Source: an uncultured virus (IMG/VR IMGVR_UViG_3300033994_001010) (Duplodnaviria > Heunggongvirae > Uroviricota > Caudoviricetes). Taken from it: a DNA stretch of 35,076 nt. A program made the translations under genes and the position numbers. The notes below the pieces were generated by a model, which saw nothing but the letters and a program-made list of their open reading frames with translations, was not told the DNA's origin and did no database searches. Every line of letters starts with the position of its first letter. Positions within the stretch are counted from its first letter, which is position 1. This document shows, piece after piece, positions 3,641 to 35,076 of the stretch. The DNA is taken from IMG/VR virus record IMGVR_UViG_3300033994_001010; one strand, 5' to 3'.

Positions 3641-5692
3641 ATGCAACAGACGGTACACACCGTTGAAGAGTTGCAAGAAATTGTTGAGGTAGTTACAAAG
3701 GCAGGGGAGTTTGCCTTTGACATTGAGTCCCGTGGGGTTATTGAGCGCCATGATGACATCAATACACTTTTTTTAAAAGAGTGTAAAGATCACATCGCAA
3801 CGCTTAAGAACCCTGCGGATTCAATTGTTGCATCATCAACAGAAGCAATTCGCCAACGCTATCTCAAAGAACTAGCACTAGATCCGTTACGCAATGAAGT
3901 CTTTTGGATTGGTATTGCCACCTACGGTCGCTCATGGGCTATACCTATGGGCCATTTACTTGGTGAAATAATTGTTCCTGAAGAACGTGGTGATGGTACG
4001 ACAATTCCACCAGAGGGGTATCGTAAGATAACCGCAAATGGTAAAGAGTCAATGGCAAAAGCCAAGTATGTAATTCCTGGTGTGTATTCTGAACCACCAG
4101 AACAATTATCCCGTTATGAAGTGTTTGAAGCACTACGACCAATATTCTTTAGCAACCTTACAAAGATTGGTCACAACGTAAAGTTTGATGCTCGCTCTAT
4201 TCGCAAGTATTACGGTGAACTACCACCGGGTCCGTACATGGACACAATGATTCTCCAACACCTAGAGAATGAAAACTCTCAATCATTTTCATTAACTAAC
4301 TTAATTGCCCAGAACTTTGGTGGGCATGATGCCTACGCTAAAGAAGGAAAACTTGGCGCTGTTATTAATACTGTTCCCTTTAGTTCTGCTGCGAAGTATG
4401 TTCACCTAGATGCTCGTTGGACATGGATGCTTTACACTAAGTTGCGTTCTAAGTTAAACCTTATCGAGTCCATACAACCTGCTATTCAACAGGAGTCAGA
4501 TGTCCTTCGGGTAATCATGGAGATGGAAGATGAGGGCATTACGGTAAACACTGCTTCTTTGAAACTTCTTAGAAAAGAACTAGATGGAAAGATGCGTGAG
4601 TGCCTACTTGATATCGTGGACAATTCATACGCAGGGTTTAACCCTGATTCAAATAAAGATAAACAAACGTACTTGTTTACAGGAAAACGACAGGGTGGGT
4701 TAGGACTCAAACCATCAAAGAAAACTGCAAGTGGAGCACCATCAGTTGATGCCGATGCTCTTGACAAACTTAAAGACAAGCATCCGTTGATTCCTATGTT
4801 GTTGCAGTGGTCGGAACTTGGAAAGATGAAGTCAACCTATGTTGATGGACTTATACCTAAATTAAACAACGGTAAGTTGCACCCGTCATTTAACATGCAT
4901 CGTGCTGCCACAGGTCGCTTATCCTCATCTAACCCAAACTTACAGAACATTCCACGAGACTCAACTATCCGCAGTTTGTTTGTCCCACCAGATGGGTACA
5001 CAATGCTCGTGGCTGACTACGACCAGATCGAGTTGAGAGTCATGGCTATGTTTAGCCAGGATGAAAGGCTTTTGCACATCTTTAAACATAACGAGGACAT
5101 TCACGCTGCAACTGCTGCTGCTGTATTTAAAAAGCCTTTGGAAGAAGTGACATCAGAAGAACGTCAGATTGGTAAGGGTGTTAACTTTCTCACTGCGTAC
5201 GGTGGTGGTCATAAAAAACTTGCAGTACAGACTGGTATTGAGGAAGAGCATGCCATGTCAATTCTTGATAACTACTATAAGAGTTTCTCTGGTCTAACTA
5301 GATGGAAACAGATTGCAATTACTAAAGCAGTAAAAATTGGGTATGTGTCAACGATTAGTGGTCGGAGAAGAAGACTTCCAGAACTTTTGTCCAAAGATTC
5401 TTTTACTCAATCACGAGCACAGCGCCAAGCCATCAACGCTATTATTCAAGGAAGTGCCGCAGACATCTGTAAGCAGGCTATGATTGACGTATCAAACGCT
5501 TTCATGGGTACTCAGGCGAAGATGCTTGTACAAATTCATGACGAACTTGTAGCGGTTGCCCCAGAAGAAGACGAAAACTCTGCAATGTCTACGTTAGTTT
5601 CTGCTATGGGTCACGACAGGAGTATTATGGGGGTGACACTTAAAGTGTCCTGTCATGCAGCAACGAACTGGTCGGAGGCAAAAGGCAAATGA
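3641..5692 (+). CDS. polA: family A DNA polymerase with 3'-5' exonuclease domain (no 5'-3' exo)
   Basis: ExoI FDIES, ExoII GHNVKFD, ExoIII YVHLD; TGRLSSSNPNLQNIP, motif A DYDQIELR, motif B KGVNFLTAYG, motif C QIHDEL. Confidence 0.95.
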   Translation: MQQTVHTVEELQEIVEVVTKAGEFAFDIESRGVIERHDDINTLFLKECKDHIATLKNPADSIVASSTEAIRQRYLKELALDPLRNEVFWIGIATYGRSWAIPMGHLLGEIIVPEERGDGTTIPPEGYRKITANGKESMAKAKYVIPGVYSEPPEQLSRYEVFEALRPIFFSNLTKIGHNVKFDARSIRKYYGELPPGPYMDTMILQHLENENSQSFSLTNLIAQNFGGHDAYAKEGKLGAVINTVPFSSAAKYVHLDARWTWMLYTKLRSKLNLIESIQPAIQQESDVLRVIMEMEDEGITVNTASLKLLRKELDGKMRECLLDIVDNSYAGFNPDSNKDKQTYLFTGKRQGGLGLKPSKKTASGAPSVDADALDKLKDKHPLIPMLLQWSELGKMKSTYVDGLIPKLNNGKLHPSFNMHRAATGRLSSSNPNLQNIPRDSTIRSLFVPPDGYTMLVADYDQIELRVMAMFSQDERLLHIFKHNEDIHAATAAAVFKKPLEEVTSEERQIGKGVNFLTAYGGGHKKLAVQTGIEEEHAMSILDNYYKSFSGLTRWKQIAITKAVKIGYVSTISGRRRRLPELLSKDSFTQSRAQRQAINAIIQGSAADICKQAMIDVSNAFMGTQAKMLVQIHDELVAVAPEEDENSAMSTLVSAMGHDRSIMGVTLKVSCHAATNWSEAKGK

Positions 5693-24427: not shown

Positions 24428-24540
24428 CAAACAAAAAGATTTGAATCAGGTGTTGGAAACGCTTTCAAGGGCGATACAGTCACAGATACCCAAAAAGGTT
24501 CTTGCAGAGATGCAAAGCCACTAACCCAAAGGAGAAGGAA

Positions 24541-25047
24541 ATGCATATCGGACACATTCTGTTAGTCGAAGCAGAGAGTAAAGAAGAAGCCAAAGAAAAT
24601 GCTCAGGCATTCGTAGAATCGTATGTTCAAGGTGGCTGGTCTGACTGGAGTGAGATTGGTGGAAGATGGGAAGGATTCTTTGACGGAGAAGATGTTCTTT
24701 GTTACAGCACCAACCCAACACTTTTTGAAGAAAAGATTGCAATGTGGCAAGAAGGTATGAAAGAAGAACAAGATCGCCTTCTTGACCAAGTTGGTGACAA
24801 GACCATTCGAGAATTGGTTGTGTACTACGCAGACGAAAACAACAAAAAGAACCTTGTTGACACAGATGAATACCTCACACTGTGGAGAGCGTTCAAATTG
24901 TTGAAAATGAATTACGGGTCTTCGTATTCCGAAGATGATCAAGTTTTTGACACTGTGTATTACTCACGAAAACTTACAGAGTTTCGCAAGCGTGTTGAAG
25001 AAAAACCACAAAATCAATACGCAGTCATTTGGGATTTTCACTTCTAA
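24541..25047 (+). CDS. hypothetical acidic protein
   Basis: ATG after AACCCAAAGGAGAAGGA; WSDWSEIGGRW and WDFH motifs. Confidence 0.75.
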   Translation: MHIGHILLVEAESKEEAKENAQAFVESYVQGGWSDWSEIGGRWEGFFDGEDVLCYSTNPTLFEEKIAMWQEGMKEEQDRLLDQVGDKTIRELVVYYADENNKKNLVDTDEYLTLWRAFKLLKMNYGSSYSEDDQVFDTVYYSRKLTEFRKRVEEKPQNQYAVIWDFHF

Positions 25048-25280
25048 TGACACCAACAATTCGCAGAGATTTGGTTGAGGCCGCACTTATGATCCCAGCC
25101 CTAAATACAAACCAATTTTATGATGTTGAAGACGTTGTAAAACTCAAATATGTTGGTAATGTAGACAGCGCATTTGAAGATGATTTTTCAGGTGAGTACG
25201 CAAAGTTTTACGCACCTGAAGGTCATGTGGTTTATCTATTCAACATTGATTTGGAATACTTGGAGGAAGTATGTTCATGA
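25047..25280 (+). CDS. hypothetical protein
   Basis: TAATG-coupled. Confidence 0.65.
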   Translation: MTPTIRRDLVEAALMIPALNTNQFYDVEDVVKLKYVGNVDSAFEDDFSGEYAKFYAPEGHVVYLFNIDLEYLEEVCS

Positions 25281-25582
25281 CAAAAAGTGAAGAGTTAGTG
25301 AATTACCTAACAGAAGAAGCACTTTACTTTGCAGAAAGAGCAATTCGTAAAGAGAAAGTATTTTACGATGATTTTGATGAATGGCAGGGTGTGACAATTC
25401 CTGAAGAACTTGGCGGTGGGGAATGGGACATCAACATTTCGGTGTATGGAGAACCGTGTATGCGAGCAACTGCTTACCCATACCACATGGTTGAGCACGA
25501 AGGAAGAATGTTTCAAGAAATGAACACTGATGCCAGTGTTGCGTTGCTTTGTCTTGAAGTAACAAAGGGAGAAGAAGAATGA
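25277..25582 (+). CDS. hypothetical acidic protein
   Basis: ATGA-coupled, GGAGG RBS. Confidence 0.65.
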   Translation: MTKSEELVNYLTEEALYFAERAIRKEKVFYDDFDEWQGVTIPEELGGGEWDINISVYGEPCMRATAYPYHMVEHEGRMFQEMNTDASVALLCLEVTKGEEE

Positions 25583-26010
25583 GTACAGGAAACATTACAT
25601 TGACACAGAATCTTCGTAATGTCCCCGATGTTGTGTGGAACATTCCGCCCGACATAAATAGATCGGGGGCAGAGTGGTATGTGGGAAGACCTAACAAAAC
25701 ACTTGTGTTGGTAAATGATTACATCAACCCGTTAGTGGTTGTAGTTTCAGGCTACCTAAGAATTGATCTCATACGAAACAAGAAGTCGGGCTACACAACT
25801 TCAGCATTGATTATGAATGAAAAAGATTTAGAAACATGGGGAATCAATAACGACCAAGAGTTAGACGAAGCAGTAAATGAGAAGAAGAAATATGAGTATC
25901 TTGATAACCCTTGGTTTGATGTTGTAGAAGTTGAATCAAAAACAAAACTTTACTCTTGTCACGACATATTCGAAGCAGTTCAATACGCAATGAAGTTGGT
26001 AATGGAATGA
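25579..26010 (+). CDS. hypothetical protein
   Basis: ATGA-coupled; NPWF motif near the C-terminus. Confidence 0.7.
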   Translation: MSTGNITLTQNLRNVPDVVWNIPPDINRSGAEWYVGRPNKTLVLVNDYINPLVVVVSGYLRIDLIRNKKSGYTTSALIMNEKDLETWGINNDQELDEAVNEKKKYEYLDNPWFDVVEVESKTKLYSCHDIFEAVQYAMKLVME

Positions 26011-26222
26011 AAGAAAAGATCACATATACCGAGTTTTTAGAACGTGTAGAAAAATACTACGCCCAATTCAAACCTACGTGGAGATACGGTCAAGCGTATT
26101 TCAACGTGCTGTCCAACGTGCGCTCTGATGTTGCCGAAACACTCCGGTCATCAATGCACGATCCATTTCATAAAGATGAAGTTGCCGAAGAAACACACAA
26201 GTATGTAAAAGCACTTTGGTAA
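26007..26222 (+). CDS. hypothetical protein
   Basis: ATGA-coupled; WRYGQAYFNVL...DPF motif. Confidence 0.7.
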   Translation: MKEKITYTEFLERVEKYYAQFKPTWRYGQAYFNVLSNVRSDVAETLRSSMHDPFHKDEVAEETHKYVKALW

Positions 26223-26227
26223 AAGAC

Positions 26228-26380
26228 TGGTTGCCTGTCTTTCCTCCTTTCGTTCGACAGGCAATCACGCAAGCCTCTGGGTAATAGCAGAGGTAATCCC
26301 GTATTGGTTTTGGGTTCTGATACGGGGTTAGACCCCAGTAAACGACTTCCTTGAGAGTGTCGACTGGGGTCTTTGCATTT
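26228..26380 (+). ncRNA. candidate structured small RNA / 3'UTR element: four abutting hairpins with anti-SD and anti-AACCCAAA loops
   Basis: Stems 26228-26267, 26273-26294, 26294-26330 and 26330-26372 (terminator-like); loops TTTCCTCCTTTCGTTC and TTTTGGGTT. Confidence 0.6.
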
Positions 26381-26393
26381 CTTTGGAAAAAGG

Positions 26394-26423
26394 TTGCAAT
26401 GTGCGTTCCGTTCTGTTTAGAAT
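26394..26423 (+). promoter_or_regulatory. SigA-type promoter
   Basis: TTGCAA-18 bp-TAGAAT; shares AAAGGTTGCAATGTGC with 27281. Confidence 0.65.
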
Positions 26424-26451
26424 CAAACCACACCCAAACAGAGGAGAGAAA

Positions 26452-26721
26452 GTGTCCAAAATAGTCATTTGTAAACAATCAGGAACAGTGTTGCATCTTG
26501 ATCATTGTGTGATAGTTGATGTTGATGGACTAACAGATCAAGATCAAGAAGACCTATTCGAAGGCGGTGACGGTGACGCAATAGAACTTGCAGTACAACT
26601 GGGAAAACCAATCCATTCGTATGAAAGTGATTTGAAAATCTATTTACTGAGTCGTTTAGACCAGTTGTCTAAAGAACTGAAAGAAGTTGCAACAGAAGTA
26701 GAGAAATGGTTGGTGTGCTAA
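26452..26721 (+). CDS. hypothetical protein
   Basis: GTG start after GAGGAG. Confidence 0.65.
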   Translation: MSKIVICKQSGTVLHLDHCVIVDVDGLTDQDQEDLFEGGDGDAIELAVQLGKPIHSYESDLKIYLLSRLDQLSKELKEVATEVEKWLVC

Positions 26722-27282
26722 ATGAAAGTACCAAAAGATGCCACAGGAGCGTATGTCAAATACGTTTTCTTTGATGAAATTGATTCAATCGATCCGGCAG
26801 AACTTGACGTGAATGATGCTGATGTAAAAGTTGCATTCATTTCATTCGGGGATTACAACCCTGAATTAGACCGATGCTCACTCACTGGAGTTCCTGATGA
26901 GCAAATCTTTTTCTACTCAACACGCAATGAGTTCCCAATGTTGTTTGATGAGCAAAGCGGAGAAGACTTCTTATTGATCAGTGAGCCGCATTTTTACTTT
27001 GAAGACATTTCATCGAGTAAAGAAAAAGCACGTAAAGACTTTCCAATGCAGTGTGTGGTGTTCTTATCCATGCCGGATACTTTGCAAGGGAAGGCTTACG
27101 GGTCATTCAAAGATGGTGGGGAAGCATTCGAGTTCATCGTCAATAGTTCCGAGTCGCAGGGATACTTCTCGATTGTCCCATTACGTAACCCAAACAAGTC
27201 GAGGGACTACCACGACTGGTGGTTGCCGGATCATGTCGAAGGAATGCACGTTCCACAAGATGAATGGAACTTTTCAAAATAA
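26722..27282 (+). CDS. hypothetical acidic protein
   Basis: 186-aa ORF abutting the previous gene. Confidence 0.7.
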   Translation: MKVPKDATGAYVKYVFFDEIDSIDPAELDVNDADVKVAFISFGDYNPELDRCSLTGVPDEQIFFYSTRNEFPMLFDEQSGEDFLLISEPHFYFEDISSSKEKARKDFPMQCVVFLSMPDTLQGKAYGSFKDGGEAFEFIVNSSESQGYFSIVPLRNPNKSRDYHDWWLPDHVEGMHVPQDEWNFSK

Positions 27283-27285
27283 AGG

Positions 27286-27314
27286 TTGCAATGTGCCACG
27301 ATCTGTGGTTCAAT
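27286..27314 (+). promoter_or_regulatory. promoter-like repeat
   Basis: TTGCAA-17 bp-TTCAAT followed by an AACCCAAACAAGGAG leader. Confidence 0.55.
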
Positions 27315-27351
27315 CAATATCCCAAATCAAAACCCAAACAAGGAGACAGAA

Positions 27352-27753
27352 ATGTCAGCATCAACAAAAGTAGAGAAAATACAGAATGGAGTAGTGAAGA
27401 TTGGCAACTGCCCTGTCGATTCCGGACAGATCATGCTTGTTGATCCTTGTTACATCAAAGACTTCGACAGCAACGACTACGCATACCAAGAGTGGCAGAA
27501 GAAGCGCAATGGAACTGAGTTCAGTTACTCAGCAACGTGCAATGTCACAATTCAATCACCAGCACAAGGTGGTCAAGTTGGTTGTGCAGTTGCAACATCA
27601 TCAGGTTGGGGTGACGGAACGTATCCGGTGTACGCAACAATCGAAGACGGTCGTGTAACTGAAGTAACGATCTACTTTGAAAACGAACCAAAGACAGACT
27701 GGGAATGCATCAGGTGTGGTGAAGGACATTTCGATTGTGAATGTGGTGAATGA
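27352..27753 (+). CDS. DUF4241-like protein
   Basis: VDSGQIMLVDPCY and SGWGDGTYPVY motifs. Confidence 0.7.
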   Translation: MSASTKVEKIQNGVVKIGNCPVDSGQIMLVDPCYIKDFDSNDYAYQEWQKKRNGTEFSYSATCNVTIQSPAQGGQVGCAVATSSGWGDGTYPVYATIEDGRVTEVTIYFENEPKTDWECIRCGEGHFDCECGE

Positions 27754-29289: not shown

Positions 29290-29359
29290 AAATCTTTGTA
29301 ATGGGTCTGTGATCGAAGCCTCCGCAACGATCACGGAATCCGCCCCATTGCAAGTAAGG

Positions 29360-29390
29360 AAATGCACCAGCAGAAATGTTGGTGCATTTT
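29360..29390 (+). terminator. intrinsic terminator
   Basis: AAATGCACCAGCA-GAAA-TGTTGGTGCATTTT. Confidence 0.75.
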
Positions 29391-29439
29391 CATTTTGTGC
29401 CGCTATCCTGAATATCCCAAACCCAAAGAAGGAGAAGTA

Positions 29440-29715
29440 ATGCAAAGTTATGAACAGCAGATGTTCACGCATCAGTTGGTGTTCAGTATCATTCACACCA
29501 TTCGCAATGTCGAAGGGTCTGCACTGGTTGGAGCACTCGACAAAACGCTCGAGGATCACGATCAGTTTCTAAAGACAACACCGATTCCGGCGCACGTTGC
29601 GGATTGGTTAGACAACCTGATTGAATTGATGAACAACTGCGAAGGAGCAGAATTAGCACGTGAACTCAAAAACCTCAAACCACCAACACGGAAGGAAACT
29701 AGCAATGCCAAATGA
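29440..29715 (+). CDS. hypothetical protein
   Basis: ATG after AACCCAAAGAAGGAG. Confidence 0.65.
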   Translation: MQSYEQQMFTHQLVFSIIHTIRNVEGSALVGALDKTLEDHDQFLKTTPIPAHVADWLDNLIELMNNCEGAELARELKNLKPPTRKETSNAK

Positions 29716-30112
29716 AATCAAAGATTGTCCACACTGTGGAGAACCAATACCGAGTCGTGAGCATGCCGGAATGTATGCCGGAGCAATCTCACGCATCGAC
29801 AACAAAACTGAAATATGCAGTGCTTGTGGAAGTCGAGAAGGACTATCGGAACACTTCAACAACACAATCAAATTGCTGTGGGATCAAATGCTCGCTCCGG
29901 CGAAGTCGAATGTGCGAATTGAAAAAACGTACTCAGTCGATGTAAAGGTTCGAATGTTTGTCCAAGCAACGAACGCTCAAGAAGCATCAGACATCGCCTA
30001 TGAAGCCGCACTTGGCAATGACCCACGTGGAGTTCTTGGGCAATCAGAAGTTCAGCACATCGATGAAACACTCGATGTTGTCGAAGGGTTTCATTCGCTC
30101 ATCGAGCACTGA
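29705..30112 (+). CDS. Zn-finger protein with C-terminal VQATNAQEA motif
   Basis: CPHC...GAISRIDNKTEICSACG; AAGGA RBS. Confidence 0.7.
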   Translation: MPNEIKDCPHCGEPIPSREHAGMYAGAISRIDNKTEICSACGSREGLSEHFNNTIKLLWDQMLAPAKSNVRIEKTYSVDVKVRMFVQATNAQEASDIAYEAALGNDPRGVLGQSEVQHIDETLDVVEGFHSLIEH

Positions 30113-30135
30113 TCTCTGGTCAATCCGGAATGCCA

Positions 30136-30169
30136 AAGACCCTCAGCAGAAATGCTGGGGGTTTTTGTT
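30136..30169 (+). terminator. intrinsic terminator
   Basis: GACCCTCAGCA-GAAA-TGCTGGGGGTT followed by TTT. Confidence 0.75.
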
Positions 30170-30325
30170 ATGTATGCCCAAATCTAAGATTCAGGCCACG
30201 CTCCAGCCCTTGTGGAATAAGGCTGAAAAAATAACGTGAGCACAGGTTGGTTTATATGCCCACGTCTGATTGAATCAATGTCCTAAACCCAAACACCGCC
30301 GAAGTGCGGAGAAAGAAGCAACATC

Positions 30326-31384
30326 ATGTCAGCAGAAACAAGCGGGTGGTTGAACCGCATGACCCTGATCGGAAACGCTCTCAAGCGTGGCAAGGCTTGG
30401 CACTGGCGAGCAGAAGATCAAGGCGATGAGTCAAACCACTATGACGGATTCATTCCGGTCGAAGATGTAAAACGCCGACTCTTCAATTTCGAAGCAGTAT
30501 CGAAGCCAGTGTTCGCTCAGAACTCAGACGGAACATTCAAGGCGATCACAGGCAAGCAAGCGATCACACACAGTGCCACTGGCGATGTCTTTGGCGTTGT
30601 GTCTGATCGATATGCGATCCACCAATTCGATGCCGCTTTGCTCGACAACTTGTCGAACATCATTGACTCCAAAGACCTTGGAATTGACTCAGCCGGACTG
30701 CTCCAAAAAGGTGCGAAGGCTTGGGTGCAAATCTCAGTGCCGGAGAACATGAGCACCACTGACGGGTTTGCAATTCGCCCAACACTCATCGGAACAACGT
30801 CACATGACGGATACACCTCGATGAACTTCAAGCGAGTTGCTCAAGCAGTTGTGTGTGACAACACGTTGTCCATCGCAATGAATGAGAAGTCGAACACTGT
30901 CAAGATTCGCCACAAGGGTGATCAGGTGCAGGGCTTGGCTTCGATCCGTGAAGCACTCGACATCGTGTACTCGATGGGCGATGACATGATGAAGGAACTC
31001 GAGCGACTCACGGCTTGGTCAGTCACTGATGATCAGTTCGATGCATTGGTGAAGGATTTGTTCCCGATCTCGATGCAGGAAGTCACGTTCTCTGATGGCA
31101 ATGGCAACACGGTCACCAAGACAATCGATGCTCAAGACACACGCTCTGCCGGAAAGCAGAACCCAAAGCGTGACTTGCTCAACGGTCTGTGGCGTGAAGA
31201 CCCACGTGTTGCTCCTTGGCGAGGAAGTGCATTAGGTGTGGTGCAGGCAACCACCACGTTCCACCAGCACTTCAGTGGCTCTGATAAGAACCGCTACAAC
31301 CGGAACTACACACGCTTGCTCACCAATCAGCAGTCGGACTACGACAAGATGGTGATGGAGAAGTTGGTGCTAGTCACCGCTTAG
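30326..31384 (+). CDS. DUF932/DUF945-family phage/plasmid protein
   Basis: AWHW, GVVSDRY, SAGLL..GAKAW, TSHDG, VVCDNTL, KIRH motifs. Confidence 0.85.
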   Translation: MSAETSGWLNRMTLIGNALKRGKAWHWRAEDQGDESNHYDGFIPVEDVKRRLFNFEAVSKPVFAQNSDGTFKAITGKQAITHSATGDVFGVVSDRYAIHQFDAALLDNLSNIIDSKDLGIDSAGLLQKGAKAWVQISVPENMSTTDGFAIRPTLIGTTSHDGYTSMNFKRVAQAVVCDNTLSIAMNEKSNTVKIRHKGDQVQGLASIREALDIVYSMGDDMMKELERLTAWSVTDDQFDALVKDLFPISMQEVTFSDGNGNTVTKTIDAQDTRSAGKQNPKRDLLNGLWREDPRVAPWRGSALGVVQATTTFHQHFSGSDKNRYNRNYTRLLTNQQSDYDKMVMEKLVLVTA

Positions 31385-31399
31385 TTCCCCAACTGAGCC

Positions 31400-31453
31400 G
31401 AGGCTCGAAACTCTGTAATGTCCCCCACATGCAGAGTTTCGAGCCTCTTTTTT
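31400..31453 (+). terminator. long-stem intrinsic terminator
   Basis: GAGGCTCGAAACTCTG...CAGAGTTTCGAGCCTC followed by TTTTTT. Confidence 0.85.
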
Positions 31454-31521
31454 ATTGTGCCACGTGTGTCTGAATCGACTGCCACGCCGATAAAGTGAGA
31501 GACCCAACGAAGGAGAGAACA

Positions 31522-33003
31522 ATGAAGACTCAAGCCACAGCAACCCAATCGATGCTCGATCTCATGAGCGCAGTCGAGAAGCCGCATTTTCGTTATCTCG
31601 AGACAGCAGTGCCACTCATGGAGCACCAGCGAAGGGCTGTCGATTTCGTGATCAATCGAAGTGACCGGAACACTGCATTGTTGGCACTCGACATGGGAAC
31701 AGGCAAGACCGCTACATCGATTGCAATTTGCATGTCTTCAATCGATGCCGGAATGTCTCCGGTACTTGTGATCTGTCCACCGTCAATGCGATTGCAATTC
31801 GCACGTGAGTTTGCTCGCTTTGCACCATCGCTGAAGGTGAAGACGCTCGAGGGAACAATGCCAGTGAAAATGAAATTGACGTTGCCTGATGCAGACGTGT
31901 TGCTGTGTGGAGACACTCAAGTGAGGGGCTGGTTGCCGTTGCTCATGGGCAATGTGAAGGGAATCATTCTCGATGAGTGCCAACGGATCAAGGATCGCAG
32001 AGCAAAGCGAAGTGATGCAATTCTTCGCATTGCCAACAGTGTTCCGATGTCCGGTATTCGAGTTGCGATGTCGGGAACGCCGCTTATTGCTCGCCCAACT
32101 GATCTCATTCCGGTCATTCGACTACTGGATCGACAATCAACATTCGCACAAGGCGAACGTGGCTTTCTCGCTCGGTATGCACCACGCATCGACTCGTATG
32201 GCACACGTGGTGCTCAGAACTTGAAGGAACTCAATCAAGTGCTGTGCGATTCATTCATGCTCCGAATGAAGCGTGAGGAAGTGCTCACATTGCCAAATCA
32301 TGGCAGAACCGTTCTCACTGTCGAGATGGACTCAGTGCATGCACGTCAGTACGCCCACGCTGAATCGAATCTCTACGAGTGGATCAAGGCAACCAAAGGT
32401 GAGAAAAAAGCAGAGAACGTGTGGAAAGCCGAAGCACTAGTTCGACTCAGCGAACTCCGCCGGATTGCTGGTGCAGGCAAGGTGCATGCAGTGAAGCAAT
32501 ACGCCCGAGAACTAGTCGATGCAGGCGAGCAAGTGTTCATCAGTGCAATTCACACTCCGGTGCTCGATGCATTCATGGGCGAGTTCGAGAACGACAACGC
32601 CGTTCGCATCTCCGGTGGCATGAGTGATGAGAAGAAAATGCAGTCGGTCGATGCATTCCAAAGTGGTCGTGCTCGAGTGCTCGTGGGGAATGTGGTTGCC
32701 GCATCTGTGGGTCTGACTCTCACGTCTGGTCGAATCCACGTGAATGCAGAGTTGCCTTGGTCGAGCACTGATCTGACTCAACTCGAAGCACGTGTGAGCC
32801 GGAATGGGCAGACTCGAGAAACCATCAGCACGATCGTGCTCGCCGGAACATCGGACAACCCGACAATCGATGAGCGCATCTACCAGTTGATCGAGCACAA
32901 AAACACGGTCGTGAACTCGGTGCTCGATGGGGAGTCGGTCGAACTTGTGAATGCAGACATCGAGTCAATCGCACTGGCAGTGCTCCGGCAGTACGGGCTG
33001 TGA
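31522..33003 (+). CDS. second SNF2-family helicase (HARP/SMARCAL1-like)
   Basis: DMGTGKT, LDECQ, MSGTP, SVGLTLT, QLEARVSRNGQ; ATG after AAGGAG. Confidence 0.9.
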   Translation: MKTQATATQSMLDLMSAVEKPHFRYLETAVPLMEHQRRAVDFVINRSDRNTALLALDMGTGKTATSIAICMSSIDAGMSPVLVICPPSMRLQFAREFARFAPSLKVKTLEGTMPVKMKLTLPDADVLLCGDTQVRGWLPLLMGNVKGIILDECQRIKDRRAKRSDAILRIANSVPMSGIRVAMSGTPLIARPTDLIPVIRLLDRQSTFAQGERGFLARYAPRIDSYGTRGAQNLKELNQVLCDSFMLRMKREEVLTLPNHGRTVLTVEMDSVHARQYAHAESNLYEWIKATKGEKKAENVWKAEALVRLSELRRIAGAGKVHAVKQYARELVDAGEQVFISAIHTPVLDAFMGEFENDNAVRISGGMSDEKKMQSVDAFQSGRARVLVGNVVAASVGLTLTSGRIHVNAELPWSSTDLTQLEARVSRNGQTRETISTIVLAGTSDNPTIDERIYQLIEHKNTVVNSVLDGESVELVNADIESIALAVLRQYGL

Positions 33004-33057
33004 GTGCTGCTTTTTTGGGGTGGCCTCAAGGGTGGCCTCGAACTCAAAATTGAGTCG

Positions 33058-33087
33058 TTGCTTTGTGTCACACCTTCGGCGTACACT
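33058..33087 (+). promoter_or_regulatory. SigA-type promoter
   Basis: TTGCTT-18 bp-TACACT. Confidence 0.55.
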
Positions 33088-33139
33088 CGATGTGTCTTCA
33101 CCATTCCGGGGAAGCAACAACCCAAGAAGGAGCAGTGCA

Positions 33140-33382
33140 ATGAAGGATCAAGACAAAGAGCAAGCGTGGAATAATTTCCGCCTTTGGTTCGACTCAATCG
33201 ATGAGCAAGTGAAGGGCAAAACACTCCGAGCAGAGAACACGCATTTGTGGATCACGATGCTCGGCATTCGCAACGTGATGTGTGAAATTGCCATCGCAGA
33301 GTTGGGCGTGAACTGGGTGCATGAGAACAACGTGAAGAATGCCCCATCGAACAGTGCCGCATTTGCAGAGATGGGCTGGTGA
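33140..33382 (+). CDS. hypothetical protein
   Basis: ATG after AACCCAAGAAGGAG. Confidence 0.65.
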   Translation: MKDQDKEQAWNNFRLWFDSIDEQVKGKTLRAENTHLWITMLGIRNVMCEIAIAELGVNWVHENNVKNAPSNSAAFAEMGW

Positions 33383-33385
33383 ATC

Positions 33386-33682
33386 ATGGGTGCTCAATTC
33401 GCTCAAGAACTCTCCGGAGATGATCTCGGACTCGGCATGCGTGAGTCGCTCGGCATTCACCTTCGCCACAACCACTACCCACCAGTACCACTGGGCATGG
33501 TCGATGTCTGCATCAAGGCAATTCAAGCGTTCCGGAAAGACGGAAGGAAGTCGCTCGACACTCGACTCGGCTTGCCGGAAGGCGTGAAATGGCAGTACCA
33601 AGACACAGTGCCAGTGCATGCAGTGATCAGCAATTTTCACCTCGACTCATGGCTCGAAGATGACTCGGAGATCGACCAATGA
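33386..33682 (+). CDS. hypothetical phage protein
   Basis: IHLRHNHYPPVP...I...HLDSWL motif. Confidence 0.7.
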   Translation: MGAQFAQELSGDDLGLGMRESLGIHLRHNHYPPVPLGMVDVCIKAIQAFRKDGRKSLDTRLGLPEGVKWQYQDTVPVHAVISNFHLDSWLEDDSEIDQ

Positions 33683-33861
33683 TCCCCGAGGAAGTGAAGT
33701 GGAACGTCAAGTTTGTGGGGGACTATTTCGCCCTCACGATGTGGCTCACTGCCAGTGATGAAGATCAGGCGATTGCCAACGCCACTGCATTACTTCAGGA
33801 TCACTACGGCTGGGACATGGAGATGTGTGCCAACGAGATCGAGGCACAGCCCGCAGACTGA
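33679..33861 (+). CDS. 60-aa acidic protein
   Basis: ATGA-coupled, GGAG RBS. Confidence 0.65.
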   Translation: MIPEEVKWNVKFVGDYFALTMWLTASDEDQAIANATALLQDHYGWDMEMCANEIEAQPAD

Positions 33862-33881
33862 CCGCTAGTCGATCTGTGATC

Positions 33882-33923
33882 GAAGCCCCAGTGACTCACC
33901 CCCTGAGTTGCTGGGGCTTCTTT
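33882..33923 (+). terminator. intrinsic terminator (copy 1 of duplicated element)
   Basis: GAAGCCCCAGTGACTCA...GAGTTGCTGGGGCTTC followed by TTT. Confidence 0.8.
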
Positions 33924-33997
33924 GCATGTTGGGGATCGATGTTCCGGCGTGATACATTTCGAGTCCGGCAATTCCGCCGTAACGAAGGGAGTCAATA

Positions 33998-34273
33998 ATG
34001 TCAGGGCTGAATTGGAGAGATCATCTCTCCACGACTACGACAAAATCATTCCACGCCACGTGGAATGGCAGGGGTGAGTTCTACACGGGCATCAAGACCG
34101 GAGATCGAGTGTTGGTGAAAGCAAGGTTCTACCAGTGGAGTGACCATCGCTCAACTGATGGCACGATTTCAGTGCTCGATTCCGGCAACGCTTCACTGAG
34201 CATTTCGGAGAGGCAGTTCGATTTGCTCAGTGACTGGGAACTCGCCCCGGAAGTGAGCCTGATCGAAAACTGA
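33998..34273 (+). CDS. hypothetical protein
   Basis: 91 aa, AAGGGAG RBS, flanked by the duplicated terminators. Confidence 0.65.
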   Translation: MSGLNWRDHLSTTTTKSFHATWNGRGEFYTGIKTGDRVLVKARFYQWSDHRSTDGTISVLDSGNASLSISERQFDLLSDWELAPEVSLIEN

Positions 34274-34286
34274 TCGATCCCCAAGC

Positions 34287-34331
34287 GAAGCCCCAGTGAC
34301 TCACGCTCGAGTTGCTGGGGCTTCTTTTTTT
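34287..34331 (+). terminator. intrinsic terminator (copy 2 of duplicated element)
   Basis: GAAGCCCCAGTGACTC...GAGTTGCTGGGGCTTC followed by T7. Confidence 0.85.
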
Positions 34332-34998
34332 GCCCCGACTCGAATTGCCCTCATTCATTCCGGATCACTCGAAATGCGGCGTATAGGAAGCGATAGGAGA
34401 CTCTGAGAACTCGAGTCATGGGTGTTGGGTGCAGGCAATTTGACCAGAGATCGAGTCCACCACGTGCAGACAATTCACCAGTGAATGCTGGGGTATTTGG
34501 GGTGGCCTCGGGACTCGAGTAGTGCTGCTTTTTTCGCCCACTGATCGAGCATCGATTCATTGCTGGAGAGAGAGAGACACATCGAGCATTGCCACGTGGA
34601 GAGAGACATCGAGCGAGCCAGTCGAGCATGCCGGAATGGTGACGTGGCGTTCCGGCTGGTGAATCATTGTGATCACAGATCGAGTTCCGGTGCAGATGCT
34701 CCACCTAGTCCCCGATACCGATTCACTGGCAATTCATAGACCCAAACGTAGGCATGACCGGATATCCCAGCATGCCCGCATTGCCCACTCAGAGCCTCGG
34801 AGAGCGTGGCAGAGAGTAATTGCGTGTGTCGATGCCCCAAACGCTCACAGAGCCTCTCCGTGCGTGAATGCGGCGTTCCCTGTGCCACTGGGGATACCGG
34901 AATGCCCAGTGATCGAGGGACAAACCCTCAACCATGCCCAAACCCAATGCCCATAAGGGAATCGCCCAAACTCTAAACCACTACTTCATACACGGCTA

Positions 34999-35056
34999 TA
35001 ACCCTATAGTAGAGGTAGAGAGTCGAGGCTTGGCAAGTCTAAACCTCTAGTAGAGG
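34999..35056. repeat. two copies of a 17-bp quasi-palindromic motif TAAMCCTMTAGTAGAGG
   Basis: 34999-35015 and 35040-35056 are 15/17 identical; CCTCTA-G-TAGAGG is an inverted repeat. Confidence 0.65.
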
Positions 35057-35076
35057 GTGAGACACCCCCCCCCCCC

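Follow-up and report, generated by a model that had tools for sequence, protein, structure and literature searches.

Two-loop contacts and anti-Shine-Dalgarno pairing are both known from bacterial RNAs. The RNAIII of Staphylococcus aureus makes two loop-loop contacts on one target, and in the icaR messenger RNA (mRNA) of the same species an anti-Shine-Dalgarno motif in the 3' untranslated region (3' UTR) pairs with the Shine-Dalgarno (SD) region at its own 5' end. A phage counterpart is the c4 RNA of P1/P7, which, in the account given in PMC5320573, is about 77 nt long, has three stem-loops (P1–P3) and is cut from its own operon transcript, its b' loop occluding the ribosome-binding site and its a' loop giving upstream specificity. 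The c4 RNA is also treated in PMC8198154, and PMC6486639 deals with 6C of Mycobacterium tuberculosis as a small RNA (sRNA) with C-rich loops. We analysed a stretch of 35,076 nt from an uncultured tailed virus (IMG/VR IMGVR_UViG_3300033994_001010; Caudoviricetes), here called the window. Downstream of a 71-aa gene (26007-26222), a 150-nt gap extends from the stop codon to a promoter-like box (26389-26423); it holds a structured RNA of about 165 nt on the plus strand, with one loop complementary to SD sequences and another complementary to a word that is frequent in leaders of the same phage.

A sequence-only reading of the window had proposed four abutting hairpins in this gap, and all four (H1 to H4, Table 1) were found where it had placed them. 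The plus-strand RNA of 26223-26385 reached a minimum free energy (MFE) of -71.4 kcal/mol compared with -45.2 +/- 3.9 kcal/mol for 200 dinucleotide shuffles of this segment (z -6.68; 0/200 shuffles as stable), so its fold goes well beyond that of shuffled sequence. In a sliding scan (873 frames of 160 nt, MFE regressed on GC content) a frame that covered the element only in part took rank 9 of 873 (z -3.1), and extrapolation from this regression would put the exact element near z -5. Two details of the proposed structure had to be revised. The stems do not simply abut, since a 4-bp closing helix surrounds H2, H3 and H4, and the architecture is a hairpin, H1, followed by a four-way junction. The H3 stem, given before as 14 bp, has 13 bp in the MFE fold, of which 9 bp are conserved across the alignment. 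Four diverged versions of the element each folded alone into the same shape.

The element did not match any described family. A scan of the whole window with the 4227 models of Rfam 15, which include 6C, riboswitches and ribozymes, gave no match at the gathering score (cmscan). At E <= 10 the sole match between 26100 and 26500 was the unrelated Plastid-rpoB on the minus strand, outside the element. ARAGORN found no transfer RNA (tRNA)- or transfer-messenger RNA-like gene in the window; the arms of the junction measure 7, 9-13 and 17 bp. A narrow search of the literature on phage-encoded anti-Shine-Dalgarno small RNAs yielded no description of this RNA either. We conclude that the element represents a structured RNA family that has so far not been catalogued.

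Strong evidence for the structure came from covariation. For 8 distinct sequences RNAalifold predicted H1, the closing helix, H2, H3 and a two-part H4, with 50 pairs of which 18 are compensatory. In the MAFFT alignment 98.7% of the cells were paired, and 0/500 column shuffles reached the observed pairing, covariation score or number of doubly changed pairs; further pair types were no more frequent than in shuffles (108/500). Sliding the partners by 1-3 columns left 35-44% of the cells paired. Very similar values were obtained for an alignment of 14 copies (9 distinct) to the covariance model R1, which is fitted to the model and hence biased towards it: 443/446 cells (99.3%) were standard pairs, 18/50 pairs were compensatory, 0/500 shuffles reached the observed value on four of five measures, and slid controls paired at 36-44%, further pair types again not exceeding the shuffles (281/500). 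The compensatory pairs are distributed over H1 (5/13), H3 (6/9), H4 (6/17) and the closing helix (1/4; A-U in the window, G-C in all relatives). All seven pairs of the H2 stem are invariant, hence this stem gives no evidence from covariation (0/7). Across the related contigs the stems covary and the loop cores are held constant, which supports the sequence-only reading.

The alignment also identified the strand. We counted 42 G-U cells and 2 A-C cells, and the minus-strand reading paired just 403/446 cells, compared with 443/446 on the plus strand. This asymmetry assigns the RNA to the gene (+) strand, as had been suggested earlier from several G-U pairs, and it disfavours the minus-strand decoy that had been offered as an alternative. 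More generally, the element might act as a minus-strand RNA that mimics leaders by showing AACCCAAA and AAGGAGG in its loops, or as DNA (an origin, a cluster of binding sites or a cruciform). The minus strand folds well too (z -5.55) and presents the loop words in leader order, and a regulator might recognise AACCCAAA as double-stranded DNA. Against this, all 42 G-U cells become A-C mismatches on the minus strand, several of these G-U pairs are fixed in 9/9 distinct sequences, no minus-strand genes were seen in the window, and neither iterons nor an AT-rich tract were present. We consider this explanation most improbable.

The element was searched for by exact-pattern scans of sequence collections, with model R1 applied to the resulting stretches. 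The 71-aa protein encoded upstream matched 11 IMG/VR contigs at 89-94% identity, and the element followed the gene in 11/11, with a nucleotide identity to the window of only 73-76%. An exact pattern based on H2 recovered the same 11 contigs. A loose two-loop pattern returned 78 stretches on viral contigs; for the 67 that were not on the known contigs, R1, run together with the window's own copy, gave no credible match (two hits, at E 4 and 8.6), and we take them to be due to chance. With a three-part pattern we obtained 5 stretches from metagenome contigs, 3 of them real (one on the contig of relative L001, and the new copies L102 and L104) and 2 due to chance, and 4 stretches from genome contigs, none of them real. 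These 2 and 4 stretches showed no match whatever to R1, and every copy was recovered by the model at E <= 1e-44. Since there was no real match in genome contigs, the searches provided neither a prophage copy nor a clue to the host. The element is now known from 13 related contigs of uncultured phages besides the window (14 copies, 9 distinct), and blastn of 25500-27500 against 50,697 phage records gave no match. As far as these searches reach, the family is confined to one clade of uncultured phages.

Four fuller relatives carry one copy of the element each. One of them, G001 (98,060 bp), has direct terminal repeats and is rated complete; its RNA lies 12.8 kb from one genome end in reading direction and its polymerase gene 9.5 kb from the other. 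At about 13 kb the window crosses the point that is equal to the genome terminus in G001.

The loops of H1 and H3 are predicted to be single-stranded, with unpaired probabilities above 0.9 at most positions. The core of the H3 loop, UUUGGGUU, is the complement of AACCCAAA and is identical in 9/9 distinct sequences while the stems drift. The H1 loop carries the anti-Shine-Dalgarno core UUCCUCCUUUCG, which is identical in 8-9 of 9 sequences at each position; the single variant, in relative G005, reads UUUCUCC.

Both cores have matching sequences in the leaders of the phage. Among 58 initiation regions (-30 to -1), ACCCAA was present in six and is the commonest 6-mer apart from SD words, behind which it takes a tied rank 4; among 8-mers AACCCAAA has a tied rank 2 (3/58). 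This bears out the earlier claim that the H3 loop is complementary to a leader motif, and the leaders that had been cited for the two loops at 27327, 28458, 31506 and 33981 are all present. Over both strands of the whole window AACCCAAA occurred 10 times compared with 2.3 expected, a count reached by 0/100 shuffles. ACCCAA is found 35-46 nt after the promoter-like box, directly before AAGGAG and the start codon; judged from this promoter geometry it would open short leaders or lie close to their 5' end.

We defined a two-part site as a site for the H3 loop (<= -8 kcal/mol) followed within 7-17 nt by a site for the H1 loop (<= -8 kcal/mol). In the right order 18 such sites were present on the plus strand and 4 on the minus strand, and since H1 precedes H3 in the RNA, the two loops have the order needed for antiparallel pairing to ACCCAA and then the SD sequence. 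Eight of the 18 begin 21-24 nt before starts (among them those of 21416, 24541, 26452, 27352, 29440, 31522 and 33140), and a ninth lies 43 nt before the start at 30326. The best combined energy (-24.6) was obtained for the gene directly downstream (26452), and the helicase gene at 31522, 24098 and 24541 came next. The sequence-only reading had spoken of a motif repeated about nine times. This number applies to the 8-9 two-part sites before starts and not to exact copies of AACCCAAA, of which 8 lie on the plus strand outside the element and only 3 of these within 30 nt of a start.

With moderate confidence we propose a base-pairing regulator that would act like the c4 RNA: one loop would occupy the ribosome-binding site and the other would provide specificity. 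In this model a non-coding RNA of about 165 nt would be expressed from the plus strand, most likely as the tail of the transcription unit 24541-26222 and with its own 3' end at H4, and would offer two permanently single-stranded loops of constant sequence as antisense seeds. In vivo the H3 loop (UUUGGGUU) would pair with ACCCAA(A), a tag at or near the 5' end of leaders from the promoter class TTGNAATGTSC, and the H1 loop (CCUCCUUUCG) with the SD sequence 0-11 nt further downstream. Together, the contacts would cover nearly the whole leader and exclude the 30S subunit. The effect would be lowered translation of 8-9 promoter-proximal genes, among them the adjacent downstream gene and the first gene of the RNA's own unit, the latter amounting to feedback. 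A wider form of this proposal, which we put forward only tentatively and regard as rather unlikely, is a translational timer for a whole regulon: the RNA would mimic the mRNA-binding tail of the ribosome and outcompete the 30S subunit on the entire promoter class, its own operon included. H1 would then be a copy of the 16S ribosomal RNA (rRNA) anti-Shine-Dalgarno sequence, and H3 would read a 5'-terminal ACCCAA tag that marks every transcript of the class.

Several observations weigh against an antisense function. The 58 starts were curated by hand from tables of open reading frames. An H3-loop energy of <= -8 kcal/mol was reached in 8/58 initiation regions, a modest enrichment, as 3.7% of 300 shuffled loops and 10.6% of 500 random 9-mers did equally well. 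The H1 loop contains CCUCC and most of the candidate leaders GGAGA, and the UCUCC loop of G005 binds nearly all leaders of the four genomes at least as well, so that no preference for own leaders over those of others is seen. H1 therefore looks like a generic anti-Shine-Dalgarno loop; the earlier statement that it matches the phage leaders is right as to the anti-Shine-Dalgarno sequence, and the loop is not tuned to leaders of the GGAGA type. The loops are constant and so offer no covariation with the leaders. The strict pattern ACCCAA-N0-6-AGGAG occurs only 2-3 times per genome in four relatives (62-98 kb), and ACCCAA may be conserved for reasons of the promoter or the start site alone. H4 was not flagged by a simple terminator scan. 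Promoter-like sites are rarer in the region than in shuffles (12 vs 18.4 in the promoter scan), and the H2 hairpin is invariant and has no proposed target.

The strict sites of the relatives were always on the gene strand (a reversed-pattern control gave 0), and in G001, G003 and G004 all of them lie within about 5.5 kb of the RNA; the third site of G002 is at the far end of its linear record. In a looser listing, G003, G005 and G001 had 5-7 leaders with ACCCAA or CCCAAC in the vicinity of the RNA. ACCCAA is kept in the orthologous leaders of the first gene of the unit, the helicase, a DUF4241-like gene and a DUF932 gene, and spacing and flanks change. Taken together, the energy-based and cross-genome tests weakly support the antisense reading, and the proposal of a multi-target antisense RNA is partly supported.

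The invariance of H2 hints at a contact with a protein or a tertiary contact. The element could thus be a protein-binding part of the 3' UTR, in which the loops and H2 are recognition sites for a protein of the phage or the host and the complementarity to leaders is incidental. Possible roles would be processive antitermination at H4 and later terminators, protection of the mRNA 3' end, or translational repression. Its H2 stem is invariant and the H2 loop nearly so (7-9 of 9 sequences identical per column) with no antisense partner proposed, the element stands directly before a terminator-like hairpin that is followed by a promoter, the five adjoining small genes have no known function, and the energy-based target test was weak. 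Protein binding alone, however, leaves unexplained that the commonest leader word apart from SD is exactly complementary to the H3 loop and that the order of the loops equals the order in the leaders. No RNA-binding domain was found among the neighbouring proteins by PHROG and Pfam scans. The put and nut RNAs, which mediate processive antitermination, are located just downstream of promoters and not at operon ends, which counts against that role here. On balance we regard this explanation as unlikely.

H4 is likely to be an intrinsic terminator and to form the 3' end of the RNA. Its stem contains CCCC/GGGG, and the tail UUUGCAUUUCUUUG is U-rich, with interruptions; the closing helix takes the first bases of this tail. 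Two further hairpins, at 33884-33925 and 34288-34330, have the stem base and tail of H4 (CCCCAG...CUGGGG-YUU-GCAU), and the terminator scan flagged 34287-34324 as a whole and of the 33884-33925 hairpin only the inner part (33901-33916). When H4 was called terminator-like in the sequence-only reading, this agreed with its likeness to other terminators of the window and not with the outcome of the simple scan. The hairpins at 33884-33925 and 34288-34330 are near-identical (GAAGCCCCAGTGACTCAC...GAGTTGCTGGGGCTTC), and a repeat, CTGTGATCGAAGCC, is common to both and to a hairpin at 29302.

The RNA follows a five-gene unit (24541-26222), and no promoter for the RNA itself was flagged in the promoter scan of the region. 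The loops might act purely in cis, as part of a 3' UTR that pairs with the 5' leader of the same mRNA (start 24541), limits its translation and triggers decay. Besides the missing separate promoter, this is favoured by AACCCAAAGGAG before the first gene of the unit, and by the finding that the 24541 leader alone keeps AACCCAA in the compared relatives (AAACCCAAACCCAAUAAAGGAG in G001, AAACCCAAUAAGGAG in G003). However, the two-part site is also present in 7-8 further leaders outside the unit, the adjacent downstream leader, behind its own promoter, has the strongest predicted site, and a stable structure that ends in a terminator is expected to accumulate and to act in trans too. An action restricted to its own mRNA appears improbable to us.

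Two other cis functions were considered and rejected. For a riboswitch or attenuator, the alternative GGGGU/ACCCC pairing between H3 and H4 that the window would allow is missing in relatives, and H4 is separated from the next gene by a conserved promoter box. For sequestration of the next gene's SD sequence on read-through, the MFE fold of 26223-26480 keeps all hairpins and H1 does not pair with that SD sequence.

The H1 loop includes CCUCCUUUC, which we take to be the 3' tail of the 16S rRNA in many Gram-positive bacteria. As a decoy of this tail on a junction scaffold, the element could draw off a host nuclease or factor, such as the RNase of a toxin-antitoxin system, or soak up host mRNAs with SD sequences. 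Such a decoy would fit a loop that matches the consensus anti-Shine-Dalgarno sequence and not the GGAGA leaders of the phage, the cloverleaf-like scaffold, and a second hairpin with a CCUCC loop before another terminator (29295-29391). It leaves the match of the H3 loop to phage leaders unexplained, no defence or toxin context was found, and ARAGORN and Rfam gave no tRNA-like gene and no match, respectively. We judge it very improbable.

The second hairpin belongs to another element at an operon end (29295-29391): a long hairpin with the loop AAGCCUCCGCAA, which contains CCUCC, is followed by a clean terminator (29358-29391), a promoter-like box and a ACCCAAAGAAGGAG leader. The segment 29230-29445 folds with z -6.05, and G003 and G005, which provide only 2 distinct sequences, retain the hairpin through compensatory changes of the stem. 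Pairing of its loop with the DUF932 leader was considered and dropped: the 7-nt complement TGCGGAG occurs once on the plus strand, at 30305, which we estimate to be about chance for a 7-mer in 35 kb. Within the wider proposal of a timer, this simpler hairpin hints that anti-Shine-Dalgarno RNAs at operon ends may be a general device of this phage group.

All credible genes of the window are on the plus strand. They encode a primase, two SNF2-type helicases, a family A DNA polymerase, a recombinase, resolvases, a DpdA-like transglycosylase, a WhiB protein (PF02467, 6e-14) and a Cro/CI-type helix-turn-helix protein. The window covers the replication genes and the small-gene region of a large tailed phage, and the WhiB protein suggests an actinobacterial host. 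The 16-nt box AAAGGTTGCAATGTGC behind the RNA is repeated exactly at 27281, and a weaker copy is present at 24732. The boxes at 26389-26404, 27281-27296, 24732-24747, 28414, 29388, 30260 and 31460 form a family, with TTGNAATGTSC or TTGTGCC, then a CTGAAT/TAGAAT-like sequence and then a short ACCCAA-AAGGAG leader. From its sequence this family looks like one phage promoter class. Because the scan finds fewer promoter-like sites than shuffles, this assignment rests on the repeated and conserved box.

In all relatives the conservation of the RNA, promoter box and leader extends to the start codon, and the alignment breaks exactly there. The downstream gene is of the MSKIVICK type in the window (26452-26721) and in G003, and another protein is encoded at this place in phages of the G001 type (L001:3443-3706). 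Within the 71-aa gene, 17 nt at 26127-26143 (GATGTTGCCGAAACACT) are invariant at every synonymous site in 8 diverged sequences and the neighbouring codons vary; this segment may serve the RNA as an internal promoter or as a signal for its processing.

Table 1. Features of the RNA element, its flanks and candidate target leaders (positions in the window)
Feature	Position	Strand	Details
Upstream 71-aa gene	26007-26222	+	phrog_8466; stop 5 nt before H1; last gene of run 24541-26222
H1	26228-26239 / 26256-26267	+	12-bp stem (13 bp in alignment); 16-nt loop TTTCCTCCTTTCGTTC at 26240-26255
Closing helix P1	26269-26272 / 26373-26376	+	GCAA / TTGC; 4 bp; encloses H2-H3-H4
H2	26273-26279 / 26288-26294	+	7-bp stem GCCUCUG/CAGAGGU; 8-nt loop GGUAAUAG
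H3	26295-26307 / 26317-26329	+	13-bp stem; loop TTTTGGGTT at 26308-26316
H4	26330-26372	+	Two-part 17-bp hairpin; then 3' strand of P1 and U-rich tail AUUUCUUUG to 26385
Promoter-like box and leader of next gene	26389-26451	+	Box AAAGGTTGCAATGTGC, TTGCAA-N18-TAGAAT; ACCCAA at 26432-26437, GAGGAG, GTG start 26452
Leader of first gene of the RNA's unit	24524-24543	+	AACCCAAAGGAG; ATG 24541; ACCCAA kept in orthologous leaders
Candidate target leader	27332-27354	+	ACCCAAACAAGGAGA; ATG 27352; behind second exact copy of promoter box
Candidate target leader	29421-29442	+	ACCCAAAGAAGGAGA; ATG 29440
Candidate target leader	31502-31524	+	ACCCAACGAAGGAGA; ATG 31522 (SNF2-type helicase)
Candidate target leader	33120-33142	+	ACCCAAGAAGGAG; ATG 33140

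Two further regions of the window deserve mention. The strongest outlier of the sliding scan was a long imperfect hairpin in the 5' part of the DNA polymerase gene (3670-3850; MFE -68.3 kcal/mol, z -7.03). It is kept in 4 relatives (about 90% identity), with 1/63 pairs compensatory and several G-U-compatible changes, and may be a translational operator or a stability element. The GC content over 30000-35076 is 0.50-0.54 compared with 0.39-0.46 in most of the window, and this part may be a module that came from elsewhere.

Hardly any regulatory RNAs are known from uncultured phages, and here strong covariation is tied to a concrete target rule, ACCCAA plus an SD sequence in the leaders of one promoter class. 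If the antisense reading is true, an entire set of transcription units would be shut off together by one small RNA, and the two-loop logic of c4, known from temperate coliphages, would reach large WhiB-carrying, probably actinobacterial phages in an unrelated architecture. For annotation the element adds a new RNA family, narrow in distribution and with a putative function.

Among RNAs of Gram-positive bacteria, the sRNAs with C-rich loops (6C of M. tuberculosis, RNAIII and RsaE of S. aureus) are looser analogues of the element. As proposed for the H1 loop, their C/U-rich loops pair with G-rich ribosome-binding regions of several mRNAs with no known chaperone. In contrast to them the element is phage-borne, does not match 6C or any other Rfam family, and has a second, G/U-rich loop that would read a leader word other than SD. 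With icaR it shares an anti-Shine-Dalgarno motif in a 3' UTR that could pair with the 5' end of the same message; it differs in its large covarying multi-helix structure, in the second specificity loop and in the matching leaders on other units.

The c4 RNA, whose 5' end is made by RNase P from a longer precursor, is the closest functional parallel, and the element is not a member of its family. The Rfam C4 model did not match the element even at E <= 10. The element has about 165 nt with H1 and a four-way junction, whereas c4 has about 77 nt and three stem-loops; it ends in a terminator-like hairpin. It is found in large phages (up to 98 kb, with terminal repeats) that carry WhiB. The c4 RNA belongs to the immunity operon of a temperate phage, where it precedes icd/ant, and no icd/ant immunity genes were seen in the 35 kb of the window: scans with PHROG (60 window proteins) and Pfam (25) detected no antirepressor, Icd or integrase, and the sole related match was a weak one to the excisionase family (2475-2918, E 2.8e-05). 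The candidate targets are 8-9 leaders, compared with one operon for c4. The covariance model, the size and shape and the operon context thus all speak against family membership, and the likeness is confined to function: like c4, the element is phage-encoded and would be part of a longer transcript, here putatively the tail, of an operon that it would regulate; it exposes two loops that could address a ribosome-binding site and a sequence upstream of it, a likeness seen here at the level of sequence; and a target leader lies close by in the same region.

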